Shown piece after piece: positions 585 to 22,861 of a stretch of DNA of 24,000 nt. The stretch covers positions 32,325-56,324 of the forward strand of contig SVHU01000006.1 in NCBI GenBank assembly GCA_015055625.1, read 5' to 3'. The notes beneath the pieces were generated by a model that had not been told where the DNA came from, ran no database searches, and worked only from the letters and a program-made list of their open reading frames with translations. Made by a program: the position numbers and the translations under genes. This stretch comes from Clostridiales bacterium (GTDB lineage Bacteria; Bacillota; Clostridia; Christensenellales; Pumilibacteraceae). Within the stretch, counting starts at the first letter, position 1. Each line of letters opens with the position of its first letter.

Positions 585-1613
585 ATGGGTATGACATTTG
601 AAAGAAAGCTTCCTATTCCTATGGAAGTAAAAGAAAGATATCCGCTTTCTGCATACGGAGAGCAAATCGTTTCAAAAAGAGCGGAGCAGGCTAAGGCAAT
701 TTTTTCGGGCAAAGACGATAGACTAATTCTCGTTATTGGTCCATGTTCTGCGGATAACGAGGATAGCGTTATCGACTATATTTCCCGTCTTAGAAAGGTT
801 CAGGATAAAGTTGAAGACAAAATCTTTATTATCCCCAGAATTTACACCAATAAGCCACGTACTACGGGCGACGGCTATAAGGGAATGGTTCACCAGCCCA
901 ACCCCAACGAAAAGCCAGATATGTACAAGGGAATCGTAGCTATCCGTGAGCTTCATATGAGAGCGCTTAACGAAACGGGATTTTCTTGCGCGGACGAAAT
1001 GCTTTATCCCGAAAATTACAGATATCTTTCCGATATCTTAGGCTACGTTGCAATTGGCGCGCGCTCGGTAGAAAACCAACAGCATCGTCTTGTATCTAGC
1101 GGTATTGATATTCCTGTCGGCATGAAAAACCCCACTTCCGGCGATATCTCGGTTATGATGAACTCTATCACCGCGGCTCAGCACAAGCACACCTTTATTT
1201 ATAGAGGTTGGGAAGTTCATTCCGAGGGTAACCCTTATGCTCATGCAATCTTAAGAGGTTACGTAAACAAGCACGGACAGGCTATCCCCAACTATCACTA
1301 CGAGGATATTTTACACCTTTGCGAAACGTACGAAAAGAGCGGACTTGAAAATCCTGCTATCATAATTGATACAAACCACTCAAATTCGGGCAAAAAATAT
1401 CTTGAACAAATCAGAATTGCAAAGGAAGTTTTACATTCTACCCGTCATAGCGCAGAGATCAAGAAAATGCTTAAAGGTCTTATGATCGAAAGCTATATCG
1501 AAGACGGCGCGCAAAAGATTGGCGAAGGTGTTTACGGAAAGTCCATCACCGATCCTTGTCTTGGCTGGGAAAAGACTGAACGTCTTATTCTTGACCTTGC
1601 AGATCAGTTGTAA
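585..1613 (+). CDS. aroG: 3-deoxy-7-phosphoheptulonate (DAHP) synthase, class I (AroF/G/H type)
   Basis: 342 aa ORF with an AAGGAAG SD upstream. Family-typical motifs are LVIGPCS, IYTNKPRTTGDGYKGM and IIDTNHSNS. The start could also be the second Met at 591. Confidence 0.9.
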   Translation: MGMTFERKLPIPMEVKERYPLSAYGEQIVSKRAEQAKAIFSGKDDRLILVIGPCSADNEDSVIDYISRLRKVQDKVEDKIFIIPRIYTNKPRTTGDGYKGMVHQPNPNEKPDMYKGIVAIRELHMRALNETGFSCADEMLYPENYRYLSDILGYVAIGARSVENQQHRLVSSGIDIPVGMKNPTSGDISVMMNSITAAQHKHTFIYRGWEVHSEGNPYAHAILRGYVNKHGQAIPNYHYEDILHLCETYEKSGLENPAIIIDTNHSNSGKKYLEQIRIAKEVLHSTRHSAEIKKMLKGLMIESYIEDGAQKIGEGVYGKSITDPCLGWEKTERLILDLADQL

Positions 1614-5888: not shown

Positions 5889-5909
5889 AGGTTTTTCTCC
5901 TTTTGTAAT

Positions 5910-6431
5910 TTATTTATTGTCGTTTATAAGAATACCTAAAGCTGAAAGCGAAGCGATAATTCGTTCGTATGCCGATTCGTCTTTTACAGCAATGGTGTGT
6001 ATATGTAATCCGTCGGTTAGGTCGCATAGCAAACTAACGTCCGTTTCCGCGCTTTTTTTAGCAAATTCTTGGGCGTCAAAACGAGAAGAGATATTAAGGT
6101 CCGCCGAAATTTGACCGTAAAGCGAATGTTCTACCGTAACCGATACGACTTTTCCGCCGTTGTCGACGATTGCATAAAATTCGTCTAACGTTTTTTCTTT
6201 ACTGTGTTTGCAAATTACTGTTTTGTAGATGTCGTCGGATATTGTTTTGGGGACGGTGTATCCTAAGCGTTCGGAAATGATTTTTACACCGCTCGCTCTA
6301 AGCAACGCAACGTCGGATACTATTATTTGTCTTGTAACACCAGTAGCTTCTGCAAGCTTAGTCGCGCTAACTGGTTTTAGCGACGTAGAGAGAATATCTA
6401 TAATTTTTACTCTTCGTTTTTCTCCGCTCAT
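5910..6431 (-). CDS. niaR: NiaR/YrxA-type niacin-responsive transcriptional repressor (HTH + 3H domain)
   Basis: 173 aa. N-terminal HTH (KIIDILSTSLKPVSATKLAEATGVTRQIIVSDVALLRASGVKI). C-terminal 3H-domain histidines (VEHSLYG ... GLHIHTI). AAAGGAG SD upstream. Confidence 0.8.
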   Translation of the reverse strand: MSGEKRRVKIIDILSTSLKPVSATKLAEATGVTRQIIVSDVALLRASGVKIISERLGYTVPKTISDDIYKTVICKHSKEKTLDEFYAIVDNGGKVVSVTVEHSLYGQISADLNISSRFDAQEFAKKSAETDVSLLCDLTDGLHIHTIAVKDESAYERIIASLSALGILINDNK

Positions 6432-6583: not shown

Positions 6584-7411
6584 TTATTGATTTTCCGCAT
6601 ACGTGTCAGAGTTTTGTGTGCAATCTTCAGCTTTTTTTACGTATTTTATTACTTCATAATCGCTGTGTTTTGTGTTTTCTTGCATAAATTCGTATACTTT
6701 ATTGCGAAGTTGTTTTTTCTTTTCACTTACAGTCAAGTTTTCGTCAGCAAAAATCGGCTCGCTGATATAGACGGTAACGTTTGCTTTACGTAAGAAAGAT
6801 AAAAAGCCTTTGGGTTTTGTGTACGCCGTAAAAAACGCAAAGCAGGGCGCATTGGATTTTGCAGGGTATGAAAAGGATGTGTCGGGGAAATTCCTCACTT
6901 TTGTATAGTATGGCCAAATGTGCGCTTCGGGATAGATTGTTATATTGCGCGTTTTATGCGTTTCGTCCATGGCCTTAATAAAGTTTTTAGCACTTTTTAT
7001 ATTGCCAGGAGTAGGCAAAGCGCCCAGCATTTTTACGATAGTTCTAAGTCCTTTTATCGATACTGTGTCCGGTCCTACCACTATCATGTTTTTTCGGGGC
7101 ATAGAGATGAGGTTGGGGGTAAACGCGTCAATAAATCCAGTGTGGTTACCGTACATATAATACGGTTGTTTTTTGTACGCTTTTACTGCTTTTTTGTTGA
7201 CGAATTTTACTCTTAGTATAACTCTCATAAAAAGCCATACAAGAGGAATGGCGATAACGTAGTATACAATAAATTCGAAAAATCGCCATATCGGATTTTT
7301 GTGTACGTACTTGTAATTTTCGTCAATTTGCTTGGTTTTTATATTGGTTCCGGCAAAGTCGTCGTTGTTTTCGTCATTATAATAAATTACTTTTTGCTTT
7401 TTGTTTTTCAT
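6584..7411 (-). CDS. lysophospholipid/1-acyl-sn-glycerol-3-phosphate acyltransferase family protein (PlsC-like)
   Basis: 275 aa. HX4D acyltransferase motif (NHTGFIDAF) after an N-terminal hydrophobic segment. Confidence 0.75.
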   Translation of the reverse strand: MKNKKQKVIYYNDENNDDFAGTNIKTKQIDENYKYVHKNPIWRFFEFIVYYVIAIPLVWLFMRVILRVKFVNKKAVKAYKKQPYYMYGNHTGFIDAFTPNLISMPRKNMIVVGPDTVSIKGLRTIVKMLGALPTPGNIKSAKNFIKAMDETHKTRNITIYPEAHIWPYYTKVRNFPDTSFSYPAKSNAPCFAFFTAYTKPKGFLSFLRKANVTVYISEPIFADENLTVSEKKKQLRNKVYEFMQENTKHSDYEVIKYVKKAEDCTQNSDTYAENQ

Positions 7412-9365: not shown

Positions 9366-9896
9366 TTAATAATTGTAGCCTGTTTGCAAAGCTTTGATGT
9401 TTGCCTCTAACAAGCTTGCGCGCTTTGCGGAAACTACGTGTTTCATAGCTTCGGTTGCGCTTTCGAGCGTTACAAGACCTGTTTCCTTGATCATTTTGCC
9501 AAGGATAATCATGTTTGCAAGAGTGGGAGTTCCTAGCTCGTTTGCAAGACGTGTAGCAGGAATGTAGTATGCGTCAACGTCTTTACGAACAACCTCTCTG
9601 GATATAAGAGCGCTGTCTACAAAGATTTTTCCGCCAGCTACCGTTGCGTTTTCGTACTTGTCGAGCGAGGGAAGATTCATTGCTATAAGAATTGTGGGGT
9701 TAGAAACGATGGGCGAGCCAACGGGTTCGTCGCTGATAATAACTCCGCAACTTGCCGTACCACCACGCATTTCAGGGCCGTATGAGGGAAGCCAGCTAAC
9801 CTGCTTGTTTTCCTCAAGACCTTCGTATGCTAAGCATTTTCCAGCAAAGAGAACGCCCTGTCCGCCGAATCCTGCGATAAGAATTTCGTTAGTCAT
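9366..9896 (-). CDS. 2-oxoacid:ferredoxin oxidoreductase, gamma subunit
   Basis: 176 aa. IAGFGGQGVLFAGK motif typical of POR/VOR/KOR gamma subunits. Confidence 0.9.
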   Translation of the reverse strand: MTNEILIAGFGGQGVLFAGKCLAYEGLEENKQVSWLPSYGPEMRGGTASCGVIISDEPVGSPIVSNPTILIAMNLPSLDKYENATVAGGKIFVDSALISREVVRKDVDAYYIPATRLANELGTPTLANMIILGKMIKETGLVTLESATEAMKHVVSAKRASLLEANIKALQTGYNY

Positions 9897-9899
9897 AGC

Positions 9900-10652
9900 T
9901 TAGTCCTCCTTTATTTGTGAACCCTTATCCTTGTACACGCCAAGGGGGTAGTAGGGAATCATATTGGTGTCAACCCACTCCAAAGCCTTAGCGGGAGTCA
10001 TACCCCAGTTTGTAGGACAGGTGGACACGATTTCGATAAGGGAGAATCCCTTACCTTCTACCTGATTTTTAAAAGCCTTCAAGATAGCCTTTTTAGCGTT
10101 TCTAACGTTTTTAACGTTGTTTACCGCAACACGCTCGATGTAGTAGGGAGCGTCGAGAGCGGAAAGCATTTCGCTTACCTTAATGGGATAGCCTGCGGTG
10201 TTCACGTCACGGCCGTAAGGCGAGGTTTGGGTAACCTGACCGGGAAGAGAGGTAGGAGCCATTTGTCCGCCTGTCATTCCGTAGATTGCGTTGTTTACGA
10301 AAATAATAGTGATGTTTTCGTTTCTTGTCGCCGCGTGAACGGTTTCAGCCATACCGATAGAAGCAAGGTCGCCGTCGCCCTGGTAGGTAAAGATAATATT
10401 TTCGGGCATAGCGCGCTTAAGACCGGTAGCAACTGCAGGAGCACGTCCGTGAGCTGCTTCTACCATATCGCAAGCAAAGTAGTCATAAGCCATTACTGCG
10501 CATCCAACGGGAGCAACACCAACAGTCTTACCTTCGATTCCAAGTTCGTCGATAGCCTCGGCTACAAGACGGTGAATAATACCGTGCGTACAACCGGGAC
10601 AGTAATGAAAAGGAGCATCTGTTAATGCCTTGGGTTTTTCAAAAACTTTCAT
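9900..10652 (-). CDS. 2-oxoacid:ferredoxin oxidoreductase, beta (TPP-binding) subunit
   Basis: 250 aa. N-terminal CPGCTHG cysteine motif and a GDGD TPP/Mg motif (YQGDGDLASIG). Confidence 0.9.
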   Translation of the reverse strand: MKVFEKPKALTDAPFHYCPGCTHGIIHRLVAEAIDELGIEGKTVGVAPVGCAVMAYDYFACDMVEAAHGRAPAVATGLKRAMPENIIFTYQGDGDLASIGMAETVHAATRNENITIIFVNNAIYGMTGGQMAPTSLPGQVTQTSPYGRDVNTAGYPIKVSEMLSALDAPYYIERVAVNNVKNVRNAKKAILKAFKNQVEGKGFSLIEIVSTCPTNWGMTPAKALEWVDTNMIPYYPLGVYKDKGSQIKED

Positions 10653-10654
10653 TA

Positions 10655-11716
10655 TTACTTAACCTCCTTTGCCATTTTCTTAATGCTTTCCAAAACCTGT
10701 TCGGGAGAGGGGATCATACCACCTGTGCGGTTGCAAAGAACTACGGGACGAGAACAATCAATAGCAAGTCTTACGTCTTCTATCATTTGTCCCATAGAAA
10801 GCTCTACGCTAATAAAGCCCTTTACGGTTTCGGATGCTTTTTTAAGTACTGCTTTGGGGAAAGGCCAAAGGGTAATAGGACGGATAAGACCAACTTTAAT
10901 ACCCTGTTTTCTAGCCTCTACTACCGCATTTTTAGAAATACGTGAAGCAATACCGAATGAAACTACGCAGTACTCTGCGTCTTCCATCATAAATTCTTCG
11001 TACATAACCTCGTTCTTTTCAATCTCGGCATATCTTTCATAGCGTTCGAAATTGGTTTGCTCGAGCTGTTCGGGGTTGAGGTAAAGCGAATTTACGATAT
11101 TGTGTTTTCTCTCGCCCTTTGTTCCTCTTACTGCCCAAGGCTTTTCAACCTCTTTAACTTCAAGCTCGGGAAGTTCAACGGGCTCCATCATCTGACCGAG
11201 CGTTCCGTCTGCAAGAAGCATTGTAGGAACTCTGTACTTGTCCGAAAGATCGAACGACTTAATAGTAAGGTCAGCCATTTCCTGAACGGATGCGGGTGCT
11301 ACTACGATAAGACGGTAGTCGCCGTGTCCGCCACCCTTTGTTGCTTGGAAATAATCGGACTGAGAGGGTTGTATTCCGCCAAGTCCGGGACCACCACGCT
11401 GTACGTTTACGATAAGAGCGGGAAGGTCTGCGCCTGCTATGTAAGAAATTCCCTCTTGTTTAAGAGAAATTCCAGGGCTGGAAGAAGACGTCATAACTCT
11501 AAAGCCTGCGCCTGCAACGCCGTATACCATGTTAATAGCCGAAACTTCGCTTTCAGCCTGGAGGAAAGTTCCGCCGATTTTGGGCATACGTTTAGCCATA
11601 TAAGCCGCAATTTCCGTTTGGGGAGTGATGGGGTAACCGAAGTAGTGTCTGCAACCTGCTTTGATTGCAGCTTCCGCGATTGCCTCGTTACCTTTCATTA
11701 AAACTTTATTACTCAT
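10655..11716 (-). CDS. 2-oxoacid:ferredoxin oxidoreductase, alpha subunit
   Basis: 353 aa. MKGNEAIAEAAIKAGCRHYFGYPITPQTEI is typical of the OFOR alpha N-terminal domain. Confidence 0.9.
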   Translation of the reverse strand: MSNKVLMKGNEAIAEAAIKAGCRHYFGYPITPQTEIAAYMAKRMPKIGGTFLQAESEVSAINMVYGVAGAGFRVMTSSSSPGISLKQEGISYIAGADLPALIVNVQRGGPGLGGIQPSQSDYFQATKGGGHGDYRLIVVAPASVQEMADLTIKSFDLSDKYRVPTMLLADGTLGQMMEPVELPELEVKEVEKPWAVRGTKGERKHNIVNSLYLNPEQLEQTNFERYERYAEIEKNEVMYEEFMMEDAEYCVVSFGIASRISKNAVVEARKQGIKVGLIRPITLWPFPKAVLKKASETVKGFISVELSMGQMIEDVRLAIDCSRPVVLCNRTGGMIPSPEQVLESIKKMAKEVK

Positions 11717-11724
11717 AATTCACC

Positions 11725-11931
11725 TCACTTTTCGACAGTAATTACACAGTCGGGGCACATTGTAGCGCAGAACGCGCATCCAATGCACTTTTCCTGATCG
11801 GTAATTTCCGCCGGAGAATGACCTTTTGCGTTAATTCTGTCTTTTGCGATAGCCAGAATTTTTTTGGGGCATGCGTCTATACAAAGTCCGCATCCCTTGC
11901 AAAGATTGTCGTTAAAAGTTACCTTTGCCAT
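11725..11931 (-). CDS. 2-oxoacid:ferredoxin oxidoreductase, delta subunit (2x[4Fe-4S] ferredoxin)
   Basis: Two CxxCxxCxxxCP motifs (CKGCGLCIDACP, CIGCAFCATMCP). Start moved from the track's 11955 to the ATG at 11931 (MAKVTF), which has AAGGAG 9 nt upstream. Confidence 0.85.
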   Translation of the reverse strand: MAKVTFNDNLCKGCGLCIDACPKKILAIAKDRINAKGHSPAEITDQEKCIGCAFCATMCPDCVITVEK

Positions 11932-11935
11932 ACTT

Positions 11936-12607
11936 TTATATCTCCTTAATATCAAAATATTTTTTTTGTAACGTCATAGCGAACGTGTTGTCCGCGTTAA
12001 GATTTTTGCTCACCTCTTGCGTACAAGAAGTAAACAGCAACGGAAGTCCTGTTTTTTCGCAAAGCTCTTTAGCTTTATTAAACGTGCTCTCAACGTCTTT
12101 TGCCGTGGTAAGGTTGCCAAGGTTAGAGTTGTTTACAACGCTTGTAAACTTGATTTTGCACGCGTCCTCTATCTCGCGCATAACCTCGATAGCAGAGTCT
12201 GCGTCGGGAGTTAAGGGACGGAAGAAGTTTGCAACAAATACCATTTCGTAGTTGTTTTCTTCCTTTATAAAGTCTGCGTATCTGCCTAAGGCGTACGCGC
12301 CTCTGTCGTCGCCACCTACATCTAAAACAGCGTAGTAACTCTTGTCCCAAACTAGCGCGTAAAGTTGTTGAGGAAGAGCGGGAAGATCAACGTTAGAATT
12401 TGCAAAAGCAGGGGAAATAAGCTCTATGCCCGCATCGCTTAGCTCTTTAGCGCTATCCTTTGTTCTAAAGTACGGATTGACGATATCCATATCTCCAATT
12501 TTTACAGGATAACCGTTTTGCTTAATACGTATTGCGTAATTTACGGCAATATTGGTTTTACCACTACCGTAATGACCGGCAAATATCGTTATGCGTTTAG
12601 GTTCCAT
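11936..12607 (-). CDS. P-loop NTPase of unknown role (SIMIBI/GPN-loop-like)
   Basis: Walker A motif GHYGSGKT near the N-terminus. The ATG at 12605-12607 overlaps the ilvE stop as TAATG. The track start at 12616 is a TTG. Confidence 0.75.
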   Translation of the reverse strand: MEPKRITIFAGHYGSGKTNIAVNYAIRIKQNGYPVKIGDMDIVNPYFRTKDSAKELSDAGIELISPAFANSNVDLPALPQQLYALVWDKSYYAVLDVGGDDRGAYALGRYADFIKEENNYEMVFVANFFRPLTPDADSAIEVMREIEDACKIKFTSVVNNSNLGNLTTAKDVESTFNKAKELCEKTGLPLLFTSCTQEVSKNLNADNTFAMTLQKKYFDIKEI

Positions 12608-13683
12608 TATTTGCAAACCTTTACGCTCCAGCCCTTATTCTCTTCGATCTTGCCCCACTGAATACCGGTAAGGTTGTCGTAGAGTTTTTGAGTAAGAGGT
12701 CCAATTTCGTTATTGGAAACAGTGTAGTCTTTTCCGTTGTAGAAAAGATGTCCGATGGGCGAAACAACCGCTGCAGTTCCTGTTCCCCAAGCTTCTTCCA
12801 ACGTTCCTTTTTCACAAGCTTCAAATAACTCGTCGATAGAGAAAAGTCTTTCTTCAACTTCGTATCCCCAATCCTTTAGTAGCTCGATGCAAGACTTTCT
12901 GGTAATACCGGGAAGAATAGATCCGCTAAGCATAGGAGTTACTATTTTGCCGTTTATCTTGAACATAACGTTCATAGCGCCAACTTCTTCGATGTACTTT
13001 CTTTCCACACCGTCAAGCCACAAAACCTGAGCATAGCCCTTTTCTTCAGCGCGCTGACCTGCTCTCATGCTTGCAGCGTAGTTACCACCGCACTTAGCAT
13101 ATCCAGTTCCGCCTCTAACTGCTCTTACGTCCTCGCTCTCGATAGCGATTTTAACGGGCTTAAGACCAGAAGCGTAGTAAGCGCCTACGGGTGAGCAAAT
13201 AATAACGAACATTGCGTTGTGTACTGCGTGTACGCCAAGATGGGGATCGTCACCGTAAATAAAGGGACGAATGTAAAGCGAAGTACCCTCGTTGTGGGGA
13301 ACCCAATCTTTTTCGAGCTCTACAAGCTTGTTAATGATGTCCAAAGCGCCCTCTTCATCAAGAAGGGGAAGACAAATTCTCTCCGCGCTCTGGTTAAGAC
13401 GCTTAACGTTCTCCATGGGACGGAAAAGTCTGATAGATCCGTCGACAGCTCTATAAGCTTTCATACCCTCGAAGATTTCCGCTCCGTAGTGGAAAACCGT
13501 GGAAGCAGGATGTGTTGGGATAGGTCCGAACGGAACGATTCTTCCGTCGTGCCAACCCTTATCCGAAGAATATTCCATAATGAACATGTGATCGGTAAAA
13601 ATTCTTCCAAATCCAAGCTTGCTCTCGTCAGCAGGCTTTGGCTGGGGATTAGTTGTTTTAGTAATAGTGATATCGTATTTCAT
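12607..13683 (-). CDS. ilvE: branched-chain amino acid aminotransferase (class IV, long form)
   Basis: 358 aa. FGRIFTDHMF, EGMKAYR and GTGTAAVVSPI motifs. GGAGG SD upstream. Confidence 0.9.
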   Translation of the reverse strand: MKYDITITKTTNPQPKPADESKLGFGRIFTDHMFIMEYSSDKGWHDGRIVPFGPIPTHPASTVFHYGAEIFEGMKAYRAVDGSIRLFRPMENVKRLNQSAERICLPLLDEEGALDIINKLVELEKDWVPHNEGTSLYIRPFIYGDDPHLGVHAVHNAMFVIICSPVGAYYASGLKPVKIAIESEDVRAVRGGTGYAKCGGNYAASMRAGQRAEEKGYAQVLWLDGVERKYIEEVGAMNVMFKINGKIVTPMLSGSILPGITRKSCIELLKDWGYEVEERLFSIDELFEACEKGTLEEAWGTGTAAVVSPIGHLFYNGKDYTVSNNEIGPLTQKLYDNLTGIQWGKIEENKGWSVKVCK

Positions 13684-13706: not shown

Positions 13707-16004
13707 TTATAACTTATTTCTCATAATCTTTCCGCTGGTGGTCTTGGGAAGTTCGTCGCGGAACACAACCACTCTGGGATATTTGTAAGGTGCGGTACGT
13801 TTCTTAACGTATTCCTGTACCTCTTTTTTGAGCGCTTCGGTAGGCTCTGTACCCTTAACAAGCACGATGCTTGCTTTTACAATCTGGCCTCTTACCTCGT
13901 CGGGCATTGCGGAAACTCCACACTCCAAAACGTAGGGAAGTTCCATAATAACGTTTTCGATTTCGAATGGTCCAATGCGGTATCCTGACGATTTTATGAC
14001 GTCGTCAACACGACCTACGTACCAATAATATCCGTCCTCGTCGCGCCAAGCGGTGTCGCCTGTGTGGTATAAGCCGTTACGTCTGACCTCGCTAGTCTTT
14101 TCCTCGTCCTCAAAGTAGCCGAGCGTAAGTCCGCAAGGGTTGCCTTTGCTTATATCAATAACAATTTCACCTACTTCGCCGACTGCAACGGGTTTGTCAT
14201 CACTGTTTACAAGCGAAATGTTATAAAGCGGGACGGGTTTACCCATAGAGCCAATCTTGGTTTTTGTTCCAAAAAGGTTAGCAAGCGCAACCGTGGTTTC
14301 GGTTTGACCAAATCCTTCCATAATTTGAAGTCCGGTAGCCTTTTCAAACTGACGGAAAACTTCGGGGTTAAGCGCTTCGCCTGCTGTGGTCATATGTTCT
14401 ATGGAAGATAGGTCAAAGTTGGAAAGGTCTTGTTTTATCATCATACGAAGCATTGTGGGTGGAGCGCAGAAAGTAGTAATATGATGCTTTGCAAACATGG
14501 GCATAATATCGTTTGCGTCAAACCTGTCAAAGTCGTACACGAATATGGGCGCTTCGCAAAGCCACTGACCGTATATCTTACCCCAGGCAGCTTTTGCCCA
14601 ACCTGTGTCGGAAATGGAAAGGTGTAATCCATCGGGGTTTACGCAATGCCAATACTTTGCGGTAACAAAATGTCCAAGAGGATATTTGTAGTTGTGCATA
14701 GCAACCTTGGGATTGCCCGTTGTTCCCGACGTAAAGTACATAAGCATCAAATCGTTGCCACAGGGAGAGTCTTCCGTTCTTTCGAACTTGCTGGAATATA
14801 AAGTATATTCTTCGTCAAAGTTTCTCCAGCCCTTTTTTTCGCCGTTTACGATAATTTTATGTTCAAGACAGGGAGCAAACTCGCTTGCCTTTTCTACCTC
14901 GTCCGAAACGTCGCCGTCCGCTGTACAAAGAATCATTTTTACGCCAGCTTTATTAAGACGGTATGTTATATCATGCTCTTTAAGCTGATTGGTAGCTGGA
15001 ATTGCAATAGCGCCTATCTTGTGAAGAGCGACCATAGCAAACCAGAACTGATAATGGCGCTTTAGGATAAGCATAACCTTGTCGCCCTTTTTTATACCTA
15101 AAGACTTAAAGTAGTTAGCGGTTTTTGCCGACATTTTCTTTATATCGGTAAATGTAAATCTTCTTTCCGTCTTGTCCTTAGCAATATGCAAAAGAGCAAG
15201 CTTGTCGGGATGAGCGGTTGCCATTGCGTCGATTACGTCAAAGCCGAAGTTGAACGTATTTTCGTTTTCAAAAGCGATCTTTTCAAGCTGACCGTTTTCG
15301 TTTTCGGTAGGAATAATAAACTTATTCCAAACGCGCTTAGGCTCGGGCTTTTTGTTTTGCTTTCTAACCGTGATAAATTCTCTTGCTCCGCCGTGAACGA
15401 GCTTAGAGATAGGCTCGGACGCAGGGTTAAGTACGATTGCGTAGAAGATACAGTCTGCTCCGCCTGTTGCAATCATTCCGTGAGGGGTGGAGGAGTCGTA
15501 GTAAATACTATCACCTTCGCCCAAGATTTCAACGTGGTCACCAACTTGCACTTTAAGCGTGCCCTTAACAACGATATCACATTCCTGACCTTCATGGGTA
15601 GTAAGCTCGATGTCCGCGTTTTGCGCGTTTTCGTCATAGTCGGAAATAACGTACAAGGGTTCTGCAATACGATTTTTAAAAGCAGATGCTAAGTTAAAAT
15701 ACGTCATACCGTGCGCTTTCTGAATTTGTTGTCCCTCACCCTTTCTTGTAACGGTATAGCCTGCAAGACGAGGGCCTGTTCCTTCGATAATTTCGGTAAC
15801 GTCTACGTTAAGCGCAAGAGCGCAACGGTACAAAAACGCGAAGTTAAGGTCGGATTTTCCGCTTTCGCAGTCTAGGTATTCCTGTAAAGTTACTCCAGTC
15901 TTTGTCGCCATATCCATTGTCGTAAGACCGATAATTTCACGCAAAGTCTTAATTCTTTGCGCCATTTCCTGAATCTTAAATTCAAGACCTGTTGCTGTTT
16001 GCAT
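13707..16004 (-). CDS. fusion protein: XRE HTH + cupin domain + medium-chain AMP-forming acyl-CoA synthetase (paralogue A)
   Basis: 765 aa from the ATG at 16004 (MQTATGLEF...), with AAGGAGG 6 nt upstream. The track's extra 55 N-terminal codons run through the T-box terminator. It has an HTH (TMDMATKTGVTLQEYLDCESGKSDL) and a cupin (GTLKVQVGDHVEILGEGDSIYYDSSTPHGM). The adenylation motifs are FTSGTTGNPK, SDTGWAKAAW, YHTGD, GRVDDVIKSSGYRIGPFEIE and PKTTSGKIMR. Confidence 0.9.
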   Translation of the reverse strand: MQTATGLEFKIQEMAQRIKTLREIIGLTTMDMATKTGVTLQEYLDCESGKSDLNFAFLYRCALALNVDVTEIIEGTGPRLAGYTVTRKGEGQQIQKAHGMTYFNLASAFKNRIAEPLYVISDYDENAQNADIELTTHEGQECDIVVKGTLKVQVGDHVEILGEGDSIYYDSSTPHGMIATGGADCIFYAIVLNPASEPISKLVHGGAREFITVRKQNKKPEPKRVWNKFIIPTENENGQLEKIAFENENTFNFGFDVIDAMATAHPDKLALLHIAKDKTERRFTFTDIKKMSAKTANYFKSLGIKKGDKVMLILKRHYQFWFAMVALHKIGAIAIPATNQLKEHDITYRLNKAGVKMILCTADGDVSDEVEKASEFAPCLEHKIIVNGEKKGWRNFDEEYTLYSSKFERTEDSPCGNDLMLMYFTSGTTGNPKVAMHNYKYPLGHFVTAKYWHCVNPDGLHLSISDTGWAKAAWGKIYGQWLCEAPIFVYDFDRFDANDIMPMFAKHHITTFCAPPTMLRMMIKQDLSNFDLSSIEHMTTAGEALNPEVFRQFEKATGLQIMEGFGQTETTVALANLFGTKTKIGSMGKPVPLYNISLVNSDDKPVAVGEVGEIVIDISKGNPCGLTLGYFEDEEKTSEVRRNGLYHTGDTAWRDEDGYYWYVGRVDDVIKSSGYRIGPFEIENVIMELPYVLECGVSAMPDEVRGQIVKASIVLVKGTEPTEALKKEVQEYVKKRTAPYKYPRVVVFRDELPKTTSGKIMRNKL

Positions 16005-16030
16005 TAAAAACCTCCTTGGTAGGGCTCTTA

Positions 16031-16308
16031 TATAAAAACTCGCCCCAAACGATAAAATCCTTTGAGACGAGTAAAATTCTTTATACCCGCGGTACCACTC
16101 AAATTGTACGCTTATTTTGCGTACCACTTTCAGGCTCTGACAAGCCGTATGCCTTAACGCAGCAATCACGAGGAAGTTCTACTTAAAAACTCTTTCTTCT
16201 TCCCTGCTCTGAAGTTACATCAAACGCTTTTACGTGGCGGTTTTCACCCTGTTCCGCCTCTCTGTAACGCAATTTTACGCGGTTGAACTCTTCGTCTATG
16301 CATTTGTA
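16031..16308 (-). promoter_or_regulatory. T-box riboswitch leader, putative specifier GUA (Val)
   Basis: On the minus strand I see these elements:
- Stem I with an AGAGAG bulge and a GGGTGAAAA distal loop.
- An F-box-like CGTGATTGCTGCGTTA.
- A stem III hairpin gtacgc...gcgtac.
- The T-box sequence AATTTGAGTGGTACCGCGGG (16086-16105).
- A terminator actcgtctcaaa/tttggggcgagt (16038-16072) followed by TTTTT.
The candidate specifier GUA is at 16216-16218, followed by A and then the CUUC lower stem. Confidence 0.85.
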
Positions 16309-16314
16309 CAAGTG

Positions 16315-16344
16315 ATTATAGCATACTAAGTGAAATCTTGTCAA
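16315..16344 (-). promoter_or_regulatory. promoter of T-box leader A
   Basis: Minus strand TTGACA (16339-16344), 18 nt spacer, TGcTATAAT (-10 at 16315-16320). Confidence 0.7.
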
Positions 16345-16373
16345 TAAAAATTAGAGTTTAATTTAATAATAAA

Positions 16374-18644
16374 TTAAAGTTTATTTCTCTGAATTTTTCC
16401 GCTGATAGTTTTAGGAAGCTCGTCCTTAAACACAATAACTCTTGGGTATTTATAGGGAGCGGTGTGTGATTTTACGTAGTTTTGAATTTCTTTTTTAAGT
16501 TCTTCTGAAGGCTCGGTGCCCTTAGTAAGAACAATACTTGCTTTTACAATCTGTCCACGGATTTCGTCGGGAACGGCGGATACACCGCATTCCACAACGT
16601 ATGGAAGTTCCATAATAACGCTTTCGATTTCGAACGGTCCAATGCGGTAGCCAGAAGACTTGATAACGTCGTCTATACGGCTAACGTACCAAAAATATCC
16701 GTCCTCGTCTTTCCAAGCGGTGTCGCCCGTATGATACATTCCGTCGTACCAAGCATCGTTTGTCTTTTCTTCGTCGAGATAATATTCTCTAAAGAGTCCG
16801 CAAGGAACGTTTTTGTCGGTGTGAACAACAATTTCACCAACTTCACCGGGAGCAACTGATTTGCCTTCGCTGTCCACGATATCAATATCATACTGGGGAG
16901 AAGCTTTACCCATAGATCCAATCTTGGGAGTTGTTCCGTAAAGGTTAGCGATTGTAAGAGTGGTTTCGGTTTGACCAAATCCTTCCATAATTTCAAGCCC
17001 GGTAGCTTGCTTAAACTGTTTGAATACTTCGGGGTTGAGCGCTTCGCCTGCCGTAGTCATGTGGTGGATAGAGGAAAGATCGAACTTGGATAAGTCACCT
17101 CTGATAAGCATACGGAGCATTGTGGGAGGAGCGCAGAATGTGGTGATCTGGTACTTTGCAAACATGGGAAGAATGTCGTTTTCGTCAAACTTGTCAAAGT
17201 CGTATACGAACACCGCGCCCTCGCAAAGCCACTGTCCGTAAAGCTTACCCCACAAAGATTTACCCCAACCGGTATCGGAGATTGTAAGATGTAAGCCGTC
17301 GCGTTCGCAACAATGCCAATATTTAGCGGTTACAAAATGACCTAAAGCGTAGGTGTGCTTGTGCGCAGCCATCTTAGGATTGCCGGTAGTTCCGGACGTG
17401 AAGAACATAAGAGCAATGTCGTCGCCACAAGACGCGTCTTCGGGACGAACGAAACGGCGAGAGAAGAACTTGTATTCTTCGTCAAAGTCGTGCCAGCCCT
17501 CTTTCTTTCCGCCCACCAAAATACGGGTTTGAACGGAAGGACACTTAAGAGAAGCGGAGTATGCGATATCCGCAACGTCGCCGTCAGCGGTACAAACGAT
17601 TGCTTTTACACCAGCCGCGTTGTAGCGGTATTCAAAGTCGTGTTCTTTAAGCTGGTTGGTTGCAGGAATTGCAACAGCGCCAAGCTTGTGAAGAGCTACC
17701 ATAGCAAACCAGAACTGGTAATGACGCTTAAGAACGAGCATAACCTTATCACCGCGCTTGATGCCAAGAGAAGCAAAATAGTTAGCAGTCTGGTTACTTG
17801 CGTCCTTGATATCTTTGAAGGTAAATCTTCTTTCGTTTTTATGCTTGTCAAGATGCAACATTGCAAGTTTATCGGGATACGTACGCGCGATTTGGTCAAC
17901 AATGTCAAAACCGAAGTTGAACGAATCGGTGTTTTCGAACGTGATGCTTTCAAGCTTTCCGTCCTCGCTTTCCACGGGTTTTACAAACTTTTCGCAAATG
18001 AGTTTTTCCTGACTTCTTGCCGTGATGATAGTACGCTGAACGATATCTTCCTTGGTGTCTTCGCCTGCGATAACTACCGCGCAGAAGGTACAGTCCTTAC
18101 CGTCTATTGCAATCATTCCGTGAGGAGTGGATGAGTCGTAGTAAATGCTGTCGCCCTCGTGCAAAATCTCGGTGTGGTTGCCAACCTGAACTTTCAAAGT
18201 TCCGCTAAGAACAAGGTCAAACTCGTGTCCGCTGTGTGTGGTAACGTGAATGGGCTTGTTTTGAAGCGAAGCCGAATATTCGTAGGTTACGTAATAAGGC
18301 TGAGCGAGTTTGTTACGGAACTTAGATGCAAGGTTTTGAATGGTTATACCGTCCTCTTTAGCGGTGGTAAGACCTTGACCTTTTCTAGTTACAGTGTAGT
18401 TAGAAAGGCGTGTTGCTCTACCTTCCAACAACTCTGTCATTTCAATATTGAAAGCAAGCGAACATTTGTGAATGAATGTAAATGGAATGTCCGCAGTTCC
18501 GCTTTCATAAGCGTTATAAAGTTCGGTAGAAACGTCGGTTTTTACAGCCATTTCTTCCTCGGTCCAGCCCATAATTTCACGCATTTCTCTGATACGTGTT
18601 GCGATATCTGATAATCTGCGCATAGAATTGTTTTGGTTGTTCAT
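16374..18644 (-). CDS. fusion protein: XRE HTH + cupin domain + medium-chain AMP-forming acyl-CoA synthetase (paralogue B)
   Basis: 756 aa, same architecture as paralogue A. It has an HTH (EEEMAVKTDVSTELYNAYESGTADI) and a cupin (HSGHEFDLVLSGTLKVQVGNHTEILHEGDSIYYDSSTPHGM). The adenylation motifs are FTSGTTGNPK, SDTGWGKSLW, YHTGD, SRIDDVIKSSGYRIGPFEIE and PKTISGKIQR. AAGGAGAA SD upstream. Confidence 0.9.
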   Translation of the reverse strand: MNNQNNSMRRLSDIATRIREMREIMGWTEEEMAVKTDVSTELYNAYESGTADIPFTFIHKCSLAFNIEMTELLEGRATRLSNYTVTRKGQGLTTAKEDGITIQNLASKFRNKLAQPYYVTYEYSASLQNKPIHVTTHSGHEFDLVLSGTLKVQVGNHTEILHEGDSIYYDSSTPHGMIAIDGKDCTFCAVVIAGEDTKEDIVQRTIITARSQEKLICEKFVKPVESEDGKLESITFENTDSFNFGFDIVDQIARTYPDKLAMLHLDKHKNERRFTFKDIKDASNQTANYFASLGIKRGDKVMLVLKRHYQFWFAMVALHKLGAVAIPATNQLKEHDFEYRYNAAGVKAIVCTADGDVADIAYSASLKCPSVQTRILVGGKKEGWHDFDEEYKFFSRRFVRPEDASCGDDIALMFFTSGTTGNPKMAAHKHTYALGHFVTAKYWHCCERDGLHLTISDTGWGKSLWGKLYGQWLCEGAVFVYDFDKFDENDILPMFAKYQITTFCAPPTMLRMLIRGDLSKFDLSSIHHMTTAGEALNPEVFKQFKQATGLEIMEGFGQTETTLTIANLYGTTPKIGSMGKASPQYDIDIVDSEGKSVAPGEVGEIVVHTDKNVPCGLFREYYLDEEKTNDAWYDGMYHTGDTAWKDEDGYFWYVSRIDDVIKSSGYRIGPFEIESVIMELPYVVECGVSAVPDEIRGQIVKASIVLTKGTEPSEELKKEIQNYVKSHTAPYKYPRVIVFKDELPKTISGKIQRNKL

Positions 18645-18691: not shown

Positions 18692-18959
18692 TAAAAAAAT
18701 TCGCCTCAAAAACTTTGAGACGAATTATAAAAATCCGTGGTACCACTCAAATTGCGTAAATTTTTACGCCACTTCAGACTCCAACAAGCCCTATGCACTA
18801 ACGTAGCAATCACGTAAGTCTTTACTTACTTTCGCTTTCAAAACTTCAGCTTGGAAGTGATAAGATATTCGAAGTTTGTTTGTCGGTTTTCACCATGCCC
18901 AACTCTCTGTAAAACTCACATTCGACTCCGTCTTCGTCGTAGCCTTTGATTAAATTGAT
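18692..18959 (-). promoter_or_regulatory. T-box riboswitch leader, putative specifier AUC (Ile)
   Basis: On the minus strand I see these elements:
- An AGAGAG bulge and a GGTGAAAA distal loop.
- An F-box-like CGTGATTGCTACGTTA.
- A stem III hairpin gcgtaaa...tttacgc.
- The T-box sequence AATTTGAGTGGTACCACGG (18735-18753).
- A terminator attcgtctcaaa/tttgaggcgaat (18699-18725) followed by TTTTTTT.
The candidate specifier AUC is at 18859-18861, followed by A and then the CUUC lower stem. Confidence 0.85.
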
Positions 18960-18965
18960 GTAGCA

Positions 18966-18994
18966 ATTATAACACCGCATTTCGCACTTGTCAA
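18966..18994 (-). promoter_or_regulatory. promoter of T-box leader B
   Basis: Minus strand TTGACA (18989-18994), 17 nt spacer, TGtTATAAT (-10 at 18966-18971). Confidence 0.7.
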
Positions 18995-19281: not shown

Positions 19282-19294
19282 ACATAACCACCTT

Positions 19295-19368
19295 CGTGGA
19301 ATTCCATACAGGTATTCCACGAAAATAGTATAAGAATTTTAAAAATTATTATCTCGTGGAGTTCCACG
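19295..19368. promoter_or_regulatory. operator candidates built on GTGGAA/TTCCAC half-sites
   Basis: IR1 is cgtggaat-N11-attccacg (19295-19321) and contains tggaattcca. IR2 is cgtgga-gt-tccacg (19355-19368). Both lie in the divergent intergenic region between the XRE-like gene and the SMP-30-family gene. Confidence 0.5.
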
Positions 19369-19396
19369 ATTGTTGACATTGTAGCGTGTTTTTTTG

Positions 19397-20404: not shown

Positions 20405-22861
20405 TTACTTTTTAAGTCCAAGCATTTCTTCGGACTGTTCTTTCATCTTGTACTTCAAGATTTTGCCCGCAGCATTCATGGGGAAGGTTTTTGCAAATAC
20501 GATGTATCTGGGAACTTTGTGTAAAGCCATGTGAGCTTTTCCGTAGTTCTTCATTTCTTCCTCACTGCTTTCCATTCCTTCGTGAAGGATAATCCAAGCG
20601 CAAGCTTCTTCGCCATAACGAGGATCGGGAACGCCAACAACCTGTACGTCGCGAACTTTTTCGTGGGTTAAGTAAAACTCTTCGATTTCTCTGGGATACA
20701 AGTTTTCTCCGCCACGGATAATCATATCCTTAAGTCTGCCCGTAATTTTGTAGTATCCGTCCTCGGTCTTGCAAGCAAGGTCGCCACTGTGAAGCCAGCC
20801 GTCTGCGTCAATAGTTTGAGCGGTTGCTTTGGGCATTTTGTAGTAGCCTTTCATTATATTAAAGCCTCTTGCTACAAATTCGCCGTTTTGACCTGCAGGA
20901 AGTTCGTCGCCTGTTTCGGGATCGATAATTTTACACTCAACGCCGGGGAATGCGCTACCAACGGTTTCCACTCTGTGGTCGATATCCTCGTTAACCTCGC
21001 CCATAGTACATCCGGGCGATGCTTCGGTCTGACCGTAAACGGAAAGAATTTCTTTCATATTCATTTCGTCCGCAGCTCTTCTCATTAGGTCAGCAGGGCA
21101 GTTTGCGCCCGCCATAATTCCCGTACGCATATATGAAAAGTCGGTTTTAGCAAAGTCTTCGTGGTTGAACATTGCGATAAACATTGTGGGAACGCCGTTA
21201 AAGCAGGTTATCTTTTCGGCATTGATGCACGCAAGCGAGGACTTGGGGCTAAAGTATGGCATAGGACATACCGTTCCGCCGTGAGTCATAAGGTTGGTCA
21301 TAGAAAGTACCATTCCAAAGCAGTGGAACATAGGTACTTGAATCATCATTCTGTCAGCGGTAGAAATATCCATTCTGTCGCCGATGGTCTTACCGTTGTT
21401 GATGATGTTGCGGTGAGTAAGCATAACGCCTTTAGGGAAGCCTGTTGTTCCTGACGTGTACTGCATATTACATACGTCGTCGGGTTTTACAGCAGAAGCT
21501 CTTCTTCTTACTTCCTCTTTTGGAACAAGCGAGGAACGAAGCAACATTTCTTCCCACTCCAAGCATCCGTCCATCTTAAAGCCTACCGTTACAACGTTAC
21601 GAAGGAAGGGAAGCTTTTTAGAATAGAGGGGAGCGCCGGGGGTAAGCGTTTTAAGCTCGGGGCAAAGCTCTTCGATAATAGCCTTATAGTCAGAGTCCTT
21701 ACAGCTGTCTATCATAACGAGTGTATGCGTGTCGGACTGACGAAGCAAGTATTCGGTTTCGTGAATTTTGTAAGCGGTGTTTACTGTTACGAGTACCGCG
21801 CCGATTTTTACCGTTGCCCAAAAGGTTATGAACCACTGGGGAATATTGGTTGCCCAGATTGCAACGTGATGCCCGGGCTTTACGCCAAGAGATATAAGCG
21901 CTGCCGCCGTTCTGTCCACATCGTCCCTGAACTGCGAGTAAGTTCTCGTGTAGTCGAGCGTTGTATACTTAAACGCATACTGGTCGGGATAGTAGTCTAC
22001 CATAGTGTCGAGAACCTGTGAGAATGTAAGATCGACAAGATCGTATTTTTTCCAAGGATGAGTACCTGTTTTGCTTCTGTTATAATATACCGGACGGGCA
22101 GGTTTTTCTTGTGGCATAACCGACGCCATAAAGCGAGTAAAATGAGTAAGGATAATGTCTTCGTCGTCAATATCGTCATTCCAAAGCGCGCAAACGTATC
22201 CGTCAAAGTTGAGCGAACGGAGAGCGTTAATAAAGTCTGCTACCGGCAAATCGCCCTCGCCAATCAGACAGTTAACGCCGTCTTTTTTGTCGCCTATAAG
22301 AACGTAGTTAATGTACGCGCCCAAGGTTTGAATAGTAGCATCCGCGCTCTCTGAAGATGTAAAGAAAGTTTCTCTTACGTTCCAAGCAACACCAAGCGCG
22401 CCGGAAGCAAAAATGTTCAAAATGTCGATAACGTTTTGCGTTTTTGCGTACTTTCCGCTAGTTTCAATAAGTACCATTACGCCCAAATTTTCTGCTTTTT
22501 TAACAAGAGGAGCAATGGTAGAAATAAGCGCGTCAATCGTTTCGTTGTCGTCAAGTGATACAACGAGATTTTCAATTTGTGCGGTTGCGCAATACTCCAA
22601 ATATTCGTTTGCCTCGTCAATATCCAAAGAAGCGTTTACTTTTTTAGGATATGCAATCGCGCTGATACCGATGTGGCGGTTGACAAGCTTACGCTTAGCG
22701 CCTGCGGTATTGTTGGAGTGGAATATACTGTCTTTATGTTGCGTTTTTTCCTGTTTTGCGTCGTAAATTTCAAAGCCGTCAAAACCGTAGTCTTTAACCT
22801 TGTTACAAAGCTCAAGAAAGGAAGATCCGCACACGTGTTTTGTAGAAAATGCAAGTTTCAT
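20405..22861 (-). CDS. fusion protein: xylose-isomerase-like TIM-barrel (AP_endonuc_2-type) domain + AMP-forming acyl-CoA ligase (FadD-like)
   Basis: 818 aa. The first ~250 aa resemble the sugar-phosphate isomerase/epimerase TIM barrel (FDGFEIY ... LIETSGKYA ... FDGYVCALW). The rest carries adenylation motifs YTSGTTGFPKGVMLTH, GWLHSGD, GRLKDMIIRGGENLYPREIE and AAGKILK. Confidence 0.85.
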   Translation of the reverse strand: MKLAFSTKHVCGSSFLELCNKVKDYGFDGFEIYDAKQEKTQHKDSIFHSNNTAGAKRKLVNRHIGISAIAYPKKVNASLDIDEANEYLEYCATAQIENLVVSLDDNETIDALISTIAPLVKKAENLGVMVLIETSGKYAKTQNVIDILNIFASGALGVAWNVRETFFTSSESADATIQTLGAYINYVLIGDKKDGVNCLIGEGDLPVADFINALRSLNFDGYVCALWNDDIDDEDIILTHFTRFMASVMPQEKPARPVYYNRSKTGTHPWKKYDLVDLTFSQVLDTMVDYYPDQYAFKYTTLDYTRTYSQFRDDVDRTAAALISLGVKPGHHVAIWATNIPQWFITFWATVKIGAVLVTVNTAYKIHETEYLLRQSDTHTLVMIDSCKDSDYKAIIEELCPELKTLTPGAPLYSKKLPFLRNVVTVGFKMDGCLEWEEMLLRSSLVPKEEVRRRASAVKPDDVCNMQYTSGTTGFPKGVMLTHRNIINNGKTIGDRMDISTADRMMIQVPMFHCFGMVLSMTNLMTHGGTVCPMPYFSPKSSLACINAEKITCFNGVPTMFIAMFNHEDFAKTDFSYMRTGIMAGANCPADLMRRAADEMNMKEILSVYGQTEASPGCTMGEVNEDIDHRVETVGSAFPGVECKIIDPETGDELPAGQNGEFVARGFNIMKGYYKMPKATAQTIDADGWLHSGDLACKTEDGYYKITGRLKDMIIRGGENLYPREIEEFYLTHEKVRDVQVVGVPDPRYGEEACAWIILHEGMESSEEEMKNYGKAHMALHKVPRYIVFAKTFPMNAAGKILKYKMKEQSEEMLGLKK

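Follow-up and report, generated by a model that had tools for sequence, protein, structure and literature searches.

An XRE-cupin module fused to, or encoded beside, branched-chain acyl-CoA ligases may act on the enzyme rather than on DNA

Two adenylate-forming acyl-CoA ligases, named here A and B, are encoded on the minus strand of a stretch of 24,000 nucleotides from a Clostridiales bacterium (GenBank assembly GCA_015055625.1, contig SVHU01000006.1, positions 32,325 to 56,324 of the forward strand), the whole of which is referred to as the window. Each begins with about 195 residues that combine a helix-turn-helix (HTH)-like lobe with a cupin barrel, the layout of XRE-cupin regulators. This module and its ligase behave as one unit, fused in three clades of Clostridia and encoded as an adjacent pair of genes elsewhere. 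With about an even chance of being right, we propose on the basis of sequence comparisons that the N-terminal module is a cis-acting ligand-sensing or oligomerisation module that tunes the ligase after translation, as a layer added to T-box control. The module would then be a domesticated XRE-cupin protein working on the enzyme, not on DNA. Its cupin pocket (His137, Glu141, Asp165 and His175, possibly with a metal) would bind a small molecule, candidates being the final amino acid, the 2-oxoacid and the branched acid that is activated, while the HTH-like lobe would give protein-protein contacts via helices 4 and 5, which are invariant. Pocket and lobe would jointly exert allosteric or oligomeric control of ligase activity atop the T-box control of its synthesis, and in other phyla the same module would do so as a separate small protein, made from a gene just upstream of the orthologous ligase.

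The succession of HTH, cupin and AMP-binding enzyme, which an earlier interpretation made from the letters of the DNA (the sequence-only reading) had announced for both paralogues, is recovered with Pfam. In ligase B the HTH_19 (residues 17-75, 33.8 bits) and HTH_3 (30.9 bits) matches are both above cutoff, and are followed by Cupin_2 (136-190), AMP-binding (251-622) and AMP-binding_C (672-750). The latter three domains are equally clear in ligase A, where the HTH matches remain just under the Pfam cutoffs (28.2 bits for HTH_19, 19.7 bits for HTH_3). Scores for the ANL enzyme domains are high in both proteins, 223.7 and 219.1 bits for PF00501 and 77 bits for PF13193. The motifs quoted at the time are also there: GTLKVQVG and GDSIYYDSSTPHGM in both proteins, THSGHE in B and THEGQE in A. 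Ligase A must be read as a protein of 765 residues from the ATG at 16004, located behind an AAGGAGG ribosome-binding site; the mechanically delineated open reading frame (ORF) of 820 residues starts with a GTG at 16169, inside the T-box leader. In the AlphaFold model of residues 1-200 (pLDDT 90.4) we find the five canonical helices (3-25, 29-35, 40-48, 55-65 and 69-74), then the cupin barrel. That the module is joined to the enzyme without a linker gap has to be qualified: the domains are contiguous in one protein, but residues 193-245 make a poorly conserved linker, the least conserved stretch of all (0.35 between paralogues), part of which corresponds, in alignments, to the N-terminal extension that free-standing ligases have.

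A fusion of this kind might be an artefact of assembly or a frameshift, an outcome that the sequence-only reading had itself named as fatal to its proposal. It is neither, because the full-length form is present in hundreds of independent assemblies. A search with B retrieved at least 120 clusters (at 90% identity) of proteins of about 755 residues, nearly all of them with HTH, Cupin_2, AMP-binding and AMP-binding_C, a few lacking the HTH annotation only. They are named in databases merely 'AMP-binding protein' or 'cupin domain-containing protein'. A third clade, of 766-residue fusions with 61% identity to B, is as large, with at least another 120 clusters. Two motifs of the N-module, scanned against one genome per species, gave at least 594 confirmed stretches, from which 80 loci were kept, all from gut or rumen metagenome-assembled genomes (Acutalibacteraceae, Oscillospiraceae, Christensenellaceae and unclassified Clostridia). 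In 80/80 of them, similarity to B does not stop at the N-module but goes on into the ligase part; about 65 match as far as the C-terminus, and the others up to the end of the contig. The gene order B, A, (aminotransferase), P-loop protein, oxidoreductase recurs across these loci, a few of which have a single ligase. The survey of architecture and taxonomic spread that had been called for thus finds HTH-cupin-ligase fusions widespread in Clostridia of gut and rumen, where they make up at least three clades. In P0159 (758 residues), a divergent fusion, the HTH-cupin module is kept, with a more basic HTH, and the nucleotide-binding motif of the ligase is degenerate (QSYSYGMAKP instead of TSGTTGNPK); this protein could be a derived pseudo-enzyme, moved toward a purely regulatory role.

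The association extends beyond fused proteins. A profile of both N-modules, searched against 1.84 billion representative sequences, retrieved 4258 proteins, including many proteins of about 185 residues that span the whole N-module (E 1e-52 to 1e-31) and are labelled in databases as XRE regulators or cupin proteins. In Marinilabilia and Bacteroidales, the gene of the free-standing module immediately precedes, on the same strand, a gene for an AMP-binding protein of 550-560 residues, with a gap of 1 nucleotide in one case. Whenever at least about 260 nucleotides of downstream sequence were available in Bacteroidales-type metagenome loci, a same-strand ligase adjoined the module gene (74/74), and these partner ligases align over their full length with the ligase part of B, at about 50-57% identity. 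The spacer has a median of 17 nucleotides; it is 20 nucleotides or less in 33/69 cases, and 1-7 nucleotides in several. Acetivibrionales, Armatimonadia and two other lineages have the pair as well. In 21/70 loci the end of an upstream gene on the same strand is 40 nucleotides or less from the module gene, which is therefore internal to an operon there; spacers of 1-20 nucleotides and this internal position suggest that module and ligase are produced stoichiometrically. Module and ligase subfamily thus make an old unit over several phyla, present as a fusion in Clostridia and as two genes in some lineages. A few Bacteroidales-type loci (L091, L109, L097 and L110) have long module-ligase spacers, of 150-790 nucleotides, which contain three direct repeats of approximately TTTTATCCC, about 20 nucleotides apart, closely followed by a promoter-like TTTG element that precedes the ligase. 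These repeats, direct and not palindromic, could be binding sites for a regulator.

We searched the literature for the fusion, the gene pair, trigger-enzyme ligases and a Bacteroides counterpart, and found no study. The proteins themselves are already in databases under generic names, and both the ligase and its pathway are of known kinds. What is new is a conserved XRE-cupin partner of the ligase, together with signs that this partner is perhaps no transcription factor; the presence of the same HTH-cupin module as a separate upstream gene in Bacteroidota, Armatimonadota and other Clostridia is also new here.

A surface meant to read DNA would have polar or basic helices 2 and 3 and a basic loop, conserved among orthologues, and the module presents nothing of the kind. 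The net charge of the first 78 residues is -5 in B and -4 in A, and that of the HTH lobe averages -6.3 in 111 free-standing relatives (range -12 to +1); a hand count gives about 0 for the same region of PuuR, a repressor of this architecture whose function is established by experiment. At positions 40-42 of the 'recognition' helix, residues of the fused proteins are acidic in 25-100% of cases and basic in 0-9%, where PezA, PbsX, DdrO and PuuR have R, N, Q, S, T or H. This Glu-rich helix is the most variable part of the HTH. Among B-type proteins the entropy is 1.47 bits for helix 2 and 1.56 for the turn and helix 3, falling to 0.40 for helix 4 and 0.61 for helix 5; the corresponding values are 1.36, 1.08, 0.51 and 0.23 bits among A-type proteins. 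Variable helices 2 and 3 beside near-fixed helices 4 and 5 are the opposite of the pattern expected for the reader of a conserved operator. Furthermore, Asp52, in the loop between helices 3 and 4, is invariant in all three groups of proteins, at a position where PezA and PuuR carry Ser and many other DNA-binding relatives probably Lys or Arg. Given this acidic charge, the variable and acid-rich helix 3 and the invariant Asp52, the lobe is unlikely to be a DNA reader; its surface is atypical and looks unsuited to DNA.

The palindromic operator typical of XRE-cupin factors was found neither at the promoters of the fused genes nor upstream of the free-standing ones. In an alignment of 58 B-type and 48 A-type promoters nothing is conserved besides TTGACA, the extended -10 box and the T-box, and no dyad is enriched apart from A/T tracts. 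Perfect 6+6 inverted repeats occur upstream of free-standing genes in 20/62 loci, against 18.5 in shuffled sequences, that is, at chance level, and the four other lineages with free-standing pairs have no palindrome in common. Three candidates were set aside. The first, TTTAATTTA-TTAT-TAAATTAAA, an inverted repeat rich in A and T that lies at the stop codon of B, upstream of promoter A, is not conserved in 51 aligned loci. 'Dyads' made of A/T tracts (TTTTT...AAAAA) upstream of the -35 box of B, in 14/58 loci, were read as low-complexity tracts resembling UP elements. Finally, the TCGTGGARTTCCA palindromes at 19294-19369, considered as an operator for the ligase HTH, belong to a small window-specific ORF; they occur only there in the window and in 0/170 fetched loci. 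This ORF of 77 residues, located immediately upstream of promoter B, weakly resembles a prophage Cro/CI-like protein (PDB 3b7h, E 0.0015) and is missing from the 80 related loci; ahead of it (19290-19369) lie three to four copies of TCGTGGA(A/G)TTCCA(CGA), a motif seen at no other place in the window. The ORF would seem to encode a small, autoregulated repressor particular to this genome, and its palindromes show what a real operator looks like here.

As for the fold, a search of the Protein Data Bank (PDB) with the N-module as a single sequence gave no match, and a profile was needed. The best profile and fold matches tie between a putative regulator, 1y9q, and the iron enzymes of phosphonate pathways HppE, Psf4, HEPD and MPnS; for HppE (1zz9) the E-value is 3e-13 over 192 columns with Foldseek and 5.4e-12 with hmmsearch, while the alignment of the module with PuuR has an hhalign probability of 96%. 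Fifteen columns are invariant across 113 sequences. Among the invariant residues are His137, Glu141 and His175, which align with GHAGNEF...PHA of HppE, where their counterparts are Fe(II) ligands, and align with PuuR as well. Like the module, these enzymes associate an HTH-like alpha domain with a cupin, which in their case carries iron, and this lobe is not known to bind DNA in HppE, HEPD and MPnS. An HTH-like lobe followed by a cupin need not, therefore, imply a regulator. The resemblance has its limits: the module is only about 18% identical to HppE-type enzymes, lies in no phosphonate gene context, belongs to anaerobes and shows no sign of oxygenase chemistry. We considered the triad as proof of an HppE-like enzyme and dropped this idea, as PuuR, a regulator, holds the same residues; for that reason the triad cannot separate sensor, enzyme and regulator. 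It points to a functional cupin pocket, without telling its role.

The sequence-only reading was right that the N-modules are more diverged between paralogues than the ligase domains. In the window, the identity is 50% for the module versus about 70% for the ligase (64% for the whole proteins), and comparison of 55 B-type with 43 A-type orthologues agrees: 0.47 for the HTH, 0.60 for the cupin, 0.67 for the ligase N-domain and 0.86 for its C-domain. The module is under purifying selection, with an identity of 0.67-0.81 within orthologues. Positions specific to one paralogue number 0.065-0.16 per residue in the module, versus 0.027 in the ligase N-domain and 0 in the C-domain, hence are 3-6 times denser in the module. 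The difference in histidines of the first cupin motif, from which different ligand or metal sites had been surmised, does not survive as such, since H140 of B and Q140 of A are not consistent across orthologues; the divergence of the modules does, with consistent sites, among them 102, 117, 133 and 142, which fall beside the cupin triad (F142C, Y117L, I102Y and H133E). These substitutions fit different ligands or partners for A and B.

The enzyme part is easier to name. Residues ~238-756 align end to end with PDB 3etc (E 2.6e-188), the Methanosarcina acetivorans ligase MA4008 (MacsMa), which we take to prefer 2-methylbutyrate. The best NCBIfam model is MbcS (NF047394), with 451 bits for B and 431.9 bits for A, below the equivalog cutoff of 850 bits, so that MbcS is their top-scoring family and they are not its equivalogs. 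The ANL core motifs are intact: FTSGTTGNPK (A3), YHTGD (A7), DDVIKSSGYRIGPFEIE at the A8 hinge and, with the catalytic lysine, A10 as PKTISGKIQR in B and PKTTSGKIMR in A. In Staphylococcus aureus, MbcS activates 2-methylbutyrate and isobutyrate (PMC10026030, PMC11167679), which are the acids expected here from the T-boxes for isoleucine and valine. Neither 3etc nor MbcS has the HTH-cupin module, and the context of A and B is amino-acid synthesis by reductive carboxylation, not the priming of fatty acids.

That the module-bearing ligases are paired with T-box control, as had been put forward, is confirmed by RF00230 leaders ahead of both genes. The 'ATC A' specifier is kept in an alignment of 66 B-type leaders, and GTA or GTC followed by a purine in 51 A-type leaders; the -35 and -10 boxes of both promoters are kept across loci. 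In locus L170 a T-box can be seen by eye upstream of a gene of the 766-residue clade (6620-6945: promoter, AGAGA box, 'ATC A' specifier, TGGTACCGCG box and terminator), which Rfam did not report at its gathering threshold. The T-box specifiers for isoleucine and valine, together with the downstream oxidoreductase and aminotransferase, make the salvage of branched acids by reductive carboxylation the simplest reading. The ligase would convert a branched acid into its acyl-CoA, the ferredoxin oxidoreductase would carboxylate this reductively into a 2-oxoacid, and transamination would yield the amino acid, 2-methylbutyrate giving isoleucine through B and isobutyrate valine through A. With the similarity to 3etc added to operon and T-boxes, B is probably the 2-methylbutyrate:CoA ligase of the isoleucine branch, and A probably the isobutyrate:CoA ligase of the valine branch, the transcription of each being presumably set by its own T-box, isoleucine for B and valine for A.

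A quite different role can be given to the same module. The fused protein would be an XRE-cupin repressor, a trigger enzyme the dimer of which binds an operator, with a ligand in the cupin, or the acyl-adenylate state of the enzyme, as the switch. The observations that follow speak for this possibility, which we regard as unlikely while giving it real weight, or count against the control of the enzyme that we prefer, or do both. HTH_3 and HTH_19 are above cutoff in B, the five-helix fold is canonical and the HTH is under purifying selection; besides its likeness to 1y9q, the module is a true homologue of PuuR, which keeps the His/Glu/His positions. XRE-cupin regulators typically repress adjacent metabolic genes through palindromic sites, as dimers (PMC7901475), so that a module paired with a ligase also fits a local repressor. 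The order of the genes, module then ligase, resembles that of a repressor-first operon, and four lineages have the pair as a unit of two genes by itself, preceded by 200-400 nucleotides of DNA, room for an operator. Two close free-standing relatives, P0327 and P0328, are placed beside a LysR gene with no ligase nearby. No Rfam leader was found upstream of free-standing pairs, nor matched at the two Bacteroidales loci scanned (L084 and L087), where another regulator would be needed; Bacteroidota are not known to use T-boxes. Operators, moreover, diverge fast and could lie elsewhere in the genome, and the full-length AlphaFold model (pLDDT 65.9, pTM 0.56) is too poor to reveal an interface between module and ligase. 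Against the repressor stand the acidic lobe, with a reading helix that is both acid-rich and least conserved next to an invariant Asp52, the lack of a conserved or enriched dyad at 106 promoters of fused genes or upstream of 62 free-standing ones, the spacers of 1-20 nucleotides and internal operon positions which in many loci suggest stoichiometric co-production, and the T-box control to which the fused genes are already submitted. The BirA-like trigger enzyme of the sequence-only reading, reporting its substrate at the DNA level, sits badly with this acidic HTH, its variable third helix and the operator that was not found; the alternative kept in reserve, an HTH-cupin that does not bind DNA and serves as an allosteric or oligomerisation module, fits the sequence evidence better. 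We are doubtful, too, of a bifunctional ligase-repressor in which the cupin or the acyl-adenylate-bound ligase would gate dimerisation and the binding of the acidic HTH to a target such as a branched-acid transporter or ilv genes. Were it true, each branch would answer to two signals, the charging of tRNA, via the T-box, and the supply of acid, via the enzyme itself.

The cupin might, instead, be catalytic itself, a metal-dependent activity, like that of HppE, HEPD or other cupin isomerases and lyases, on the acid, the acyl-CoA or the acyl-adenylate (for example proofreading or stereochemical editing), with the HTH-like lobe as a structural lid like that of HppE. The matches to HppE, Psf4, HEPD and MPnS at the top of fold and profile searches, and a triad invariant in 113 sequences and aligned with the HppE motif, would agree with this; the triad is kept by the regulator PuuR, however, identity to HppE is only 18%, and the neighbours are genes for the salvage of branched-chain amino acids, with no phosphonate or other matching pathway nearby. 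Since the hosts are gut and rumen anaerobes, dioxygen-dependent chemistry is unlikely, and as the salvage route requires no extra chemical step and isobutyrate is achiral, we find a catalytic cupin improbable. Very improbable is the idea of a relic, the leftover of a neighbouring repressor that was once fused and has no present role beyond folding or solubility: the N-module evolves faster than the ligase, it is true, and the free-standing ligases 3etc and MbcS work without it (PMC10026030), but it persists at full length in hundreds of species and three clades, with fifteen invariant columns and near-invariant helices 4 and 5, and it accompanies the ligase as a separate gene across phyla. Control of the enzyme by a module encoded with it remains the account that we prefer.

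It is useful to place this module among known systems. The trigger enzymes BirA, NadR and PutA (a concept of Commichau and Stuelke) have demonstrated operators and DNA-binding surfaces. They share with A and B an N-terminal HTH-type domain and an enzyme in one polypeptide, and BirA also forms an acyl-adenylate; A and B differ from them by a surface that looks unsuited to DNA, by the absence of a visible operator and by an unrelated type of HTH, that of BirA being a winged helix. Another parallel is IlvN/IlvH, the small regulatory subunit, with an ACT domain, of acetohydroxyacid synthase. In both cases the catalytic protein of a branched-chain route has a small companion that binds a ligand (presumably so for the module), on the same polypeptide or from a neighbouring gene; the module is made of a cupin and an HTH-like lobe in lieu of an ACT fold, and the regulation of a ligase by such a subunit is an analogy. 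The XRE-cupin factors proper (PuuR of Escherichia coli; ErfA, PsdR and PauR of Pseudomonas; PMC7901475) have the same two-domain layout, the cupin His/Glu/His and a linkage to metabolic genes. They differ from our module in that the latter is fused to its partner enzyme, or co-transcribed within a few nucleotides of it, and has an acidic HTH with a variable, Glu-rich helix 3, an invariant Asp52 and no detected palindromic operator. A further pair of a small ligand-binding protein and a ligase in an amino-acid context occurs in L170, where a T-box (5753-6004) heads a set made of a PaaK-like adenylate-forming ligase of 435 residues (4326-5633, minus strand), an ACT protein of 143 residues (3875-4306, minus strand) and DAHP synthase.

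Table 1. Features of the window, with positions counted from its first letter.
Feature	Positions	Strand	Basis
Ligase B, 756 residues, HTH-like + cupin + AMP-forming acyl-CoA synthetase	16374-18644	-	Pfam, 3etc, MbcS, Ile specifier
B, HTH-like five-helix lobe, residues 10-75	18420-18617	-	HTH_19/HTH_3 matches, AlphaFold helices
B, cupin barrel, residues 92-192 (H137, E141, D165, H175 family-invariant)	18069-18371	-	Cupin_2, predicted strands
B, variable linker + ligase N-terminal extension, residues 193-245	17910-18068	-	lowest conservation, low pLDDT
B, ligase proper, residues 246-756	16377-17909	-	sequence motifs, Pfam, PDB search
T-box leader of B, specifier AUC (Ile)	18713-18949	-	Rfam RF00230, 103.6 bits, above gathering score
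Promoter of B	18966-18994	-	TTGACA 18989-18994, 17-nucleotide spacer, TGTTATAAT with -10 box 18966-18971
Ligase A, 765-residue paralogue	13707-16004	-	Pfam, Val specifier in leader
A, HTH-like lobe	15780-15977	-	
A, cupin	15429-15731	-	
A, ligase	13710-15242	-	
T-box leader of A, specifier GUA (Val)	16060-16307	-	Rfam RF00230, 99 bits, above gathering score
Promoter of A	16315-16344	-	TTGACA 16339-16344, 18-nucleotide spacer, TATAAT 16315-16320
Class IV branched-chain amino acid aminotransferase	12607-13683	-	Aminotran_4; NCBIfam PRK13357, 478.6 bits, above cutoff
P-loop (ParA/CbiA-like) protein, 226 residues	11936-12616	-	weak ParA/CbiA Pfam matches; position kept in most loci
Four-subunit 2-oxoacid:ferredoxin oxidoreductase	9366-11931	-	POR_N, PFOR_II, TPP_enzyme_C and POR matches; synteny
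Oxidoreductase, delta subunit	11725-11931	-	
Oxidoreductase, alpha subunit	10655-11716	-	
Oxidoreductase, beta subunit	9900-10652	-	
Oxidoreductase, gamma subunit	9366-9896	-	
ORF of 77 residues	19048-19281	-	weak match to 3b7h
Third ligase, TIM barrel + AMP-binding	20405-22861	-	xylose-isomerase-like (AP_endonuc_2) and AMP-binding domains
LeuA-like protein, 371 residues	22864-23979	-	partial HMGL-like domain + LeuA_dimer
HTH_11 + 3H-domain regulator, 173 residues	5910-6431	-	
Zinc-ribbon protein, 706 residues	3768-5888	-	
Zinc-ribbon protein, 397 residues	2377-3570	-	
DAHP synthase	585-1613	+	

The minus-strand array of the window (Table 1) reads promoter, T-box, ligase B, promoter, T-box, ligase A, aminotransferase, P-loop protein and oxidoreductase. 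The aminotransferase is the last step of the salvage route. The oxidoreductase includes as its delta subunit an ORF of 68 residues that resembles a 2x[4Fe-4S] protein. The 226-residue P-loop protein (ParA/CbiA/NUBPL-like) is found in most related loci between the ligases or the aminotransferase and the oxidoreductase; it matched no NCBIfam family, and could be a factor for Fe-S cluster delivery or for maturation of the oxidoreductase. A third ligase of the window has another N-terminal fusion, to a xylose-isomerase-like TIM barrel, and is preceded by the LeuA-like protein. This pair lies upstream of ligase B in many loci, with a T-box ahead of it in L035 (1475-1713), and may be the leucine/isovalerate counterpart. 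The HTH_11 and 3H-domain regulator, the two zinc-ribbon proteins and DAHP synthase seem unconnected to the ligases.

Many fibre-degrading bacteria of rumen and gut need branched short-chain fatty acids, and the operon described here is the likely route from these acids to valine and isoleucine. An XRE-cupin module on the entry enzyme of this route in hundreds of species, whether fused to it or encoded just upstream, points to a layer of control that has not been studied. If the module proves to bind DNA, it would define a new class of trigger enzymes. If it is, as we propose, a sensor that does not bind DNA, the many proteins that databases now call 'XRE family transcriptional regulators' on account of it would be misnamed, and adenylate-forming ligases would gain a new kind of regulatory partner.

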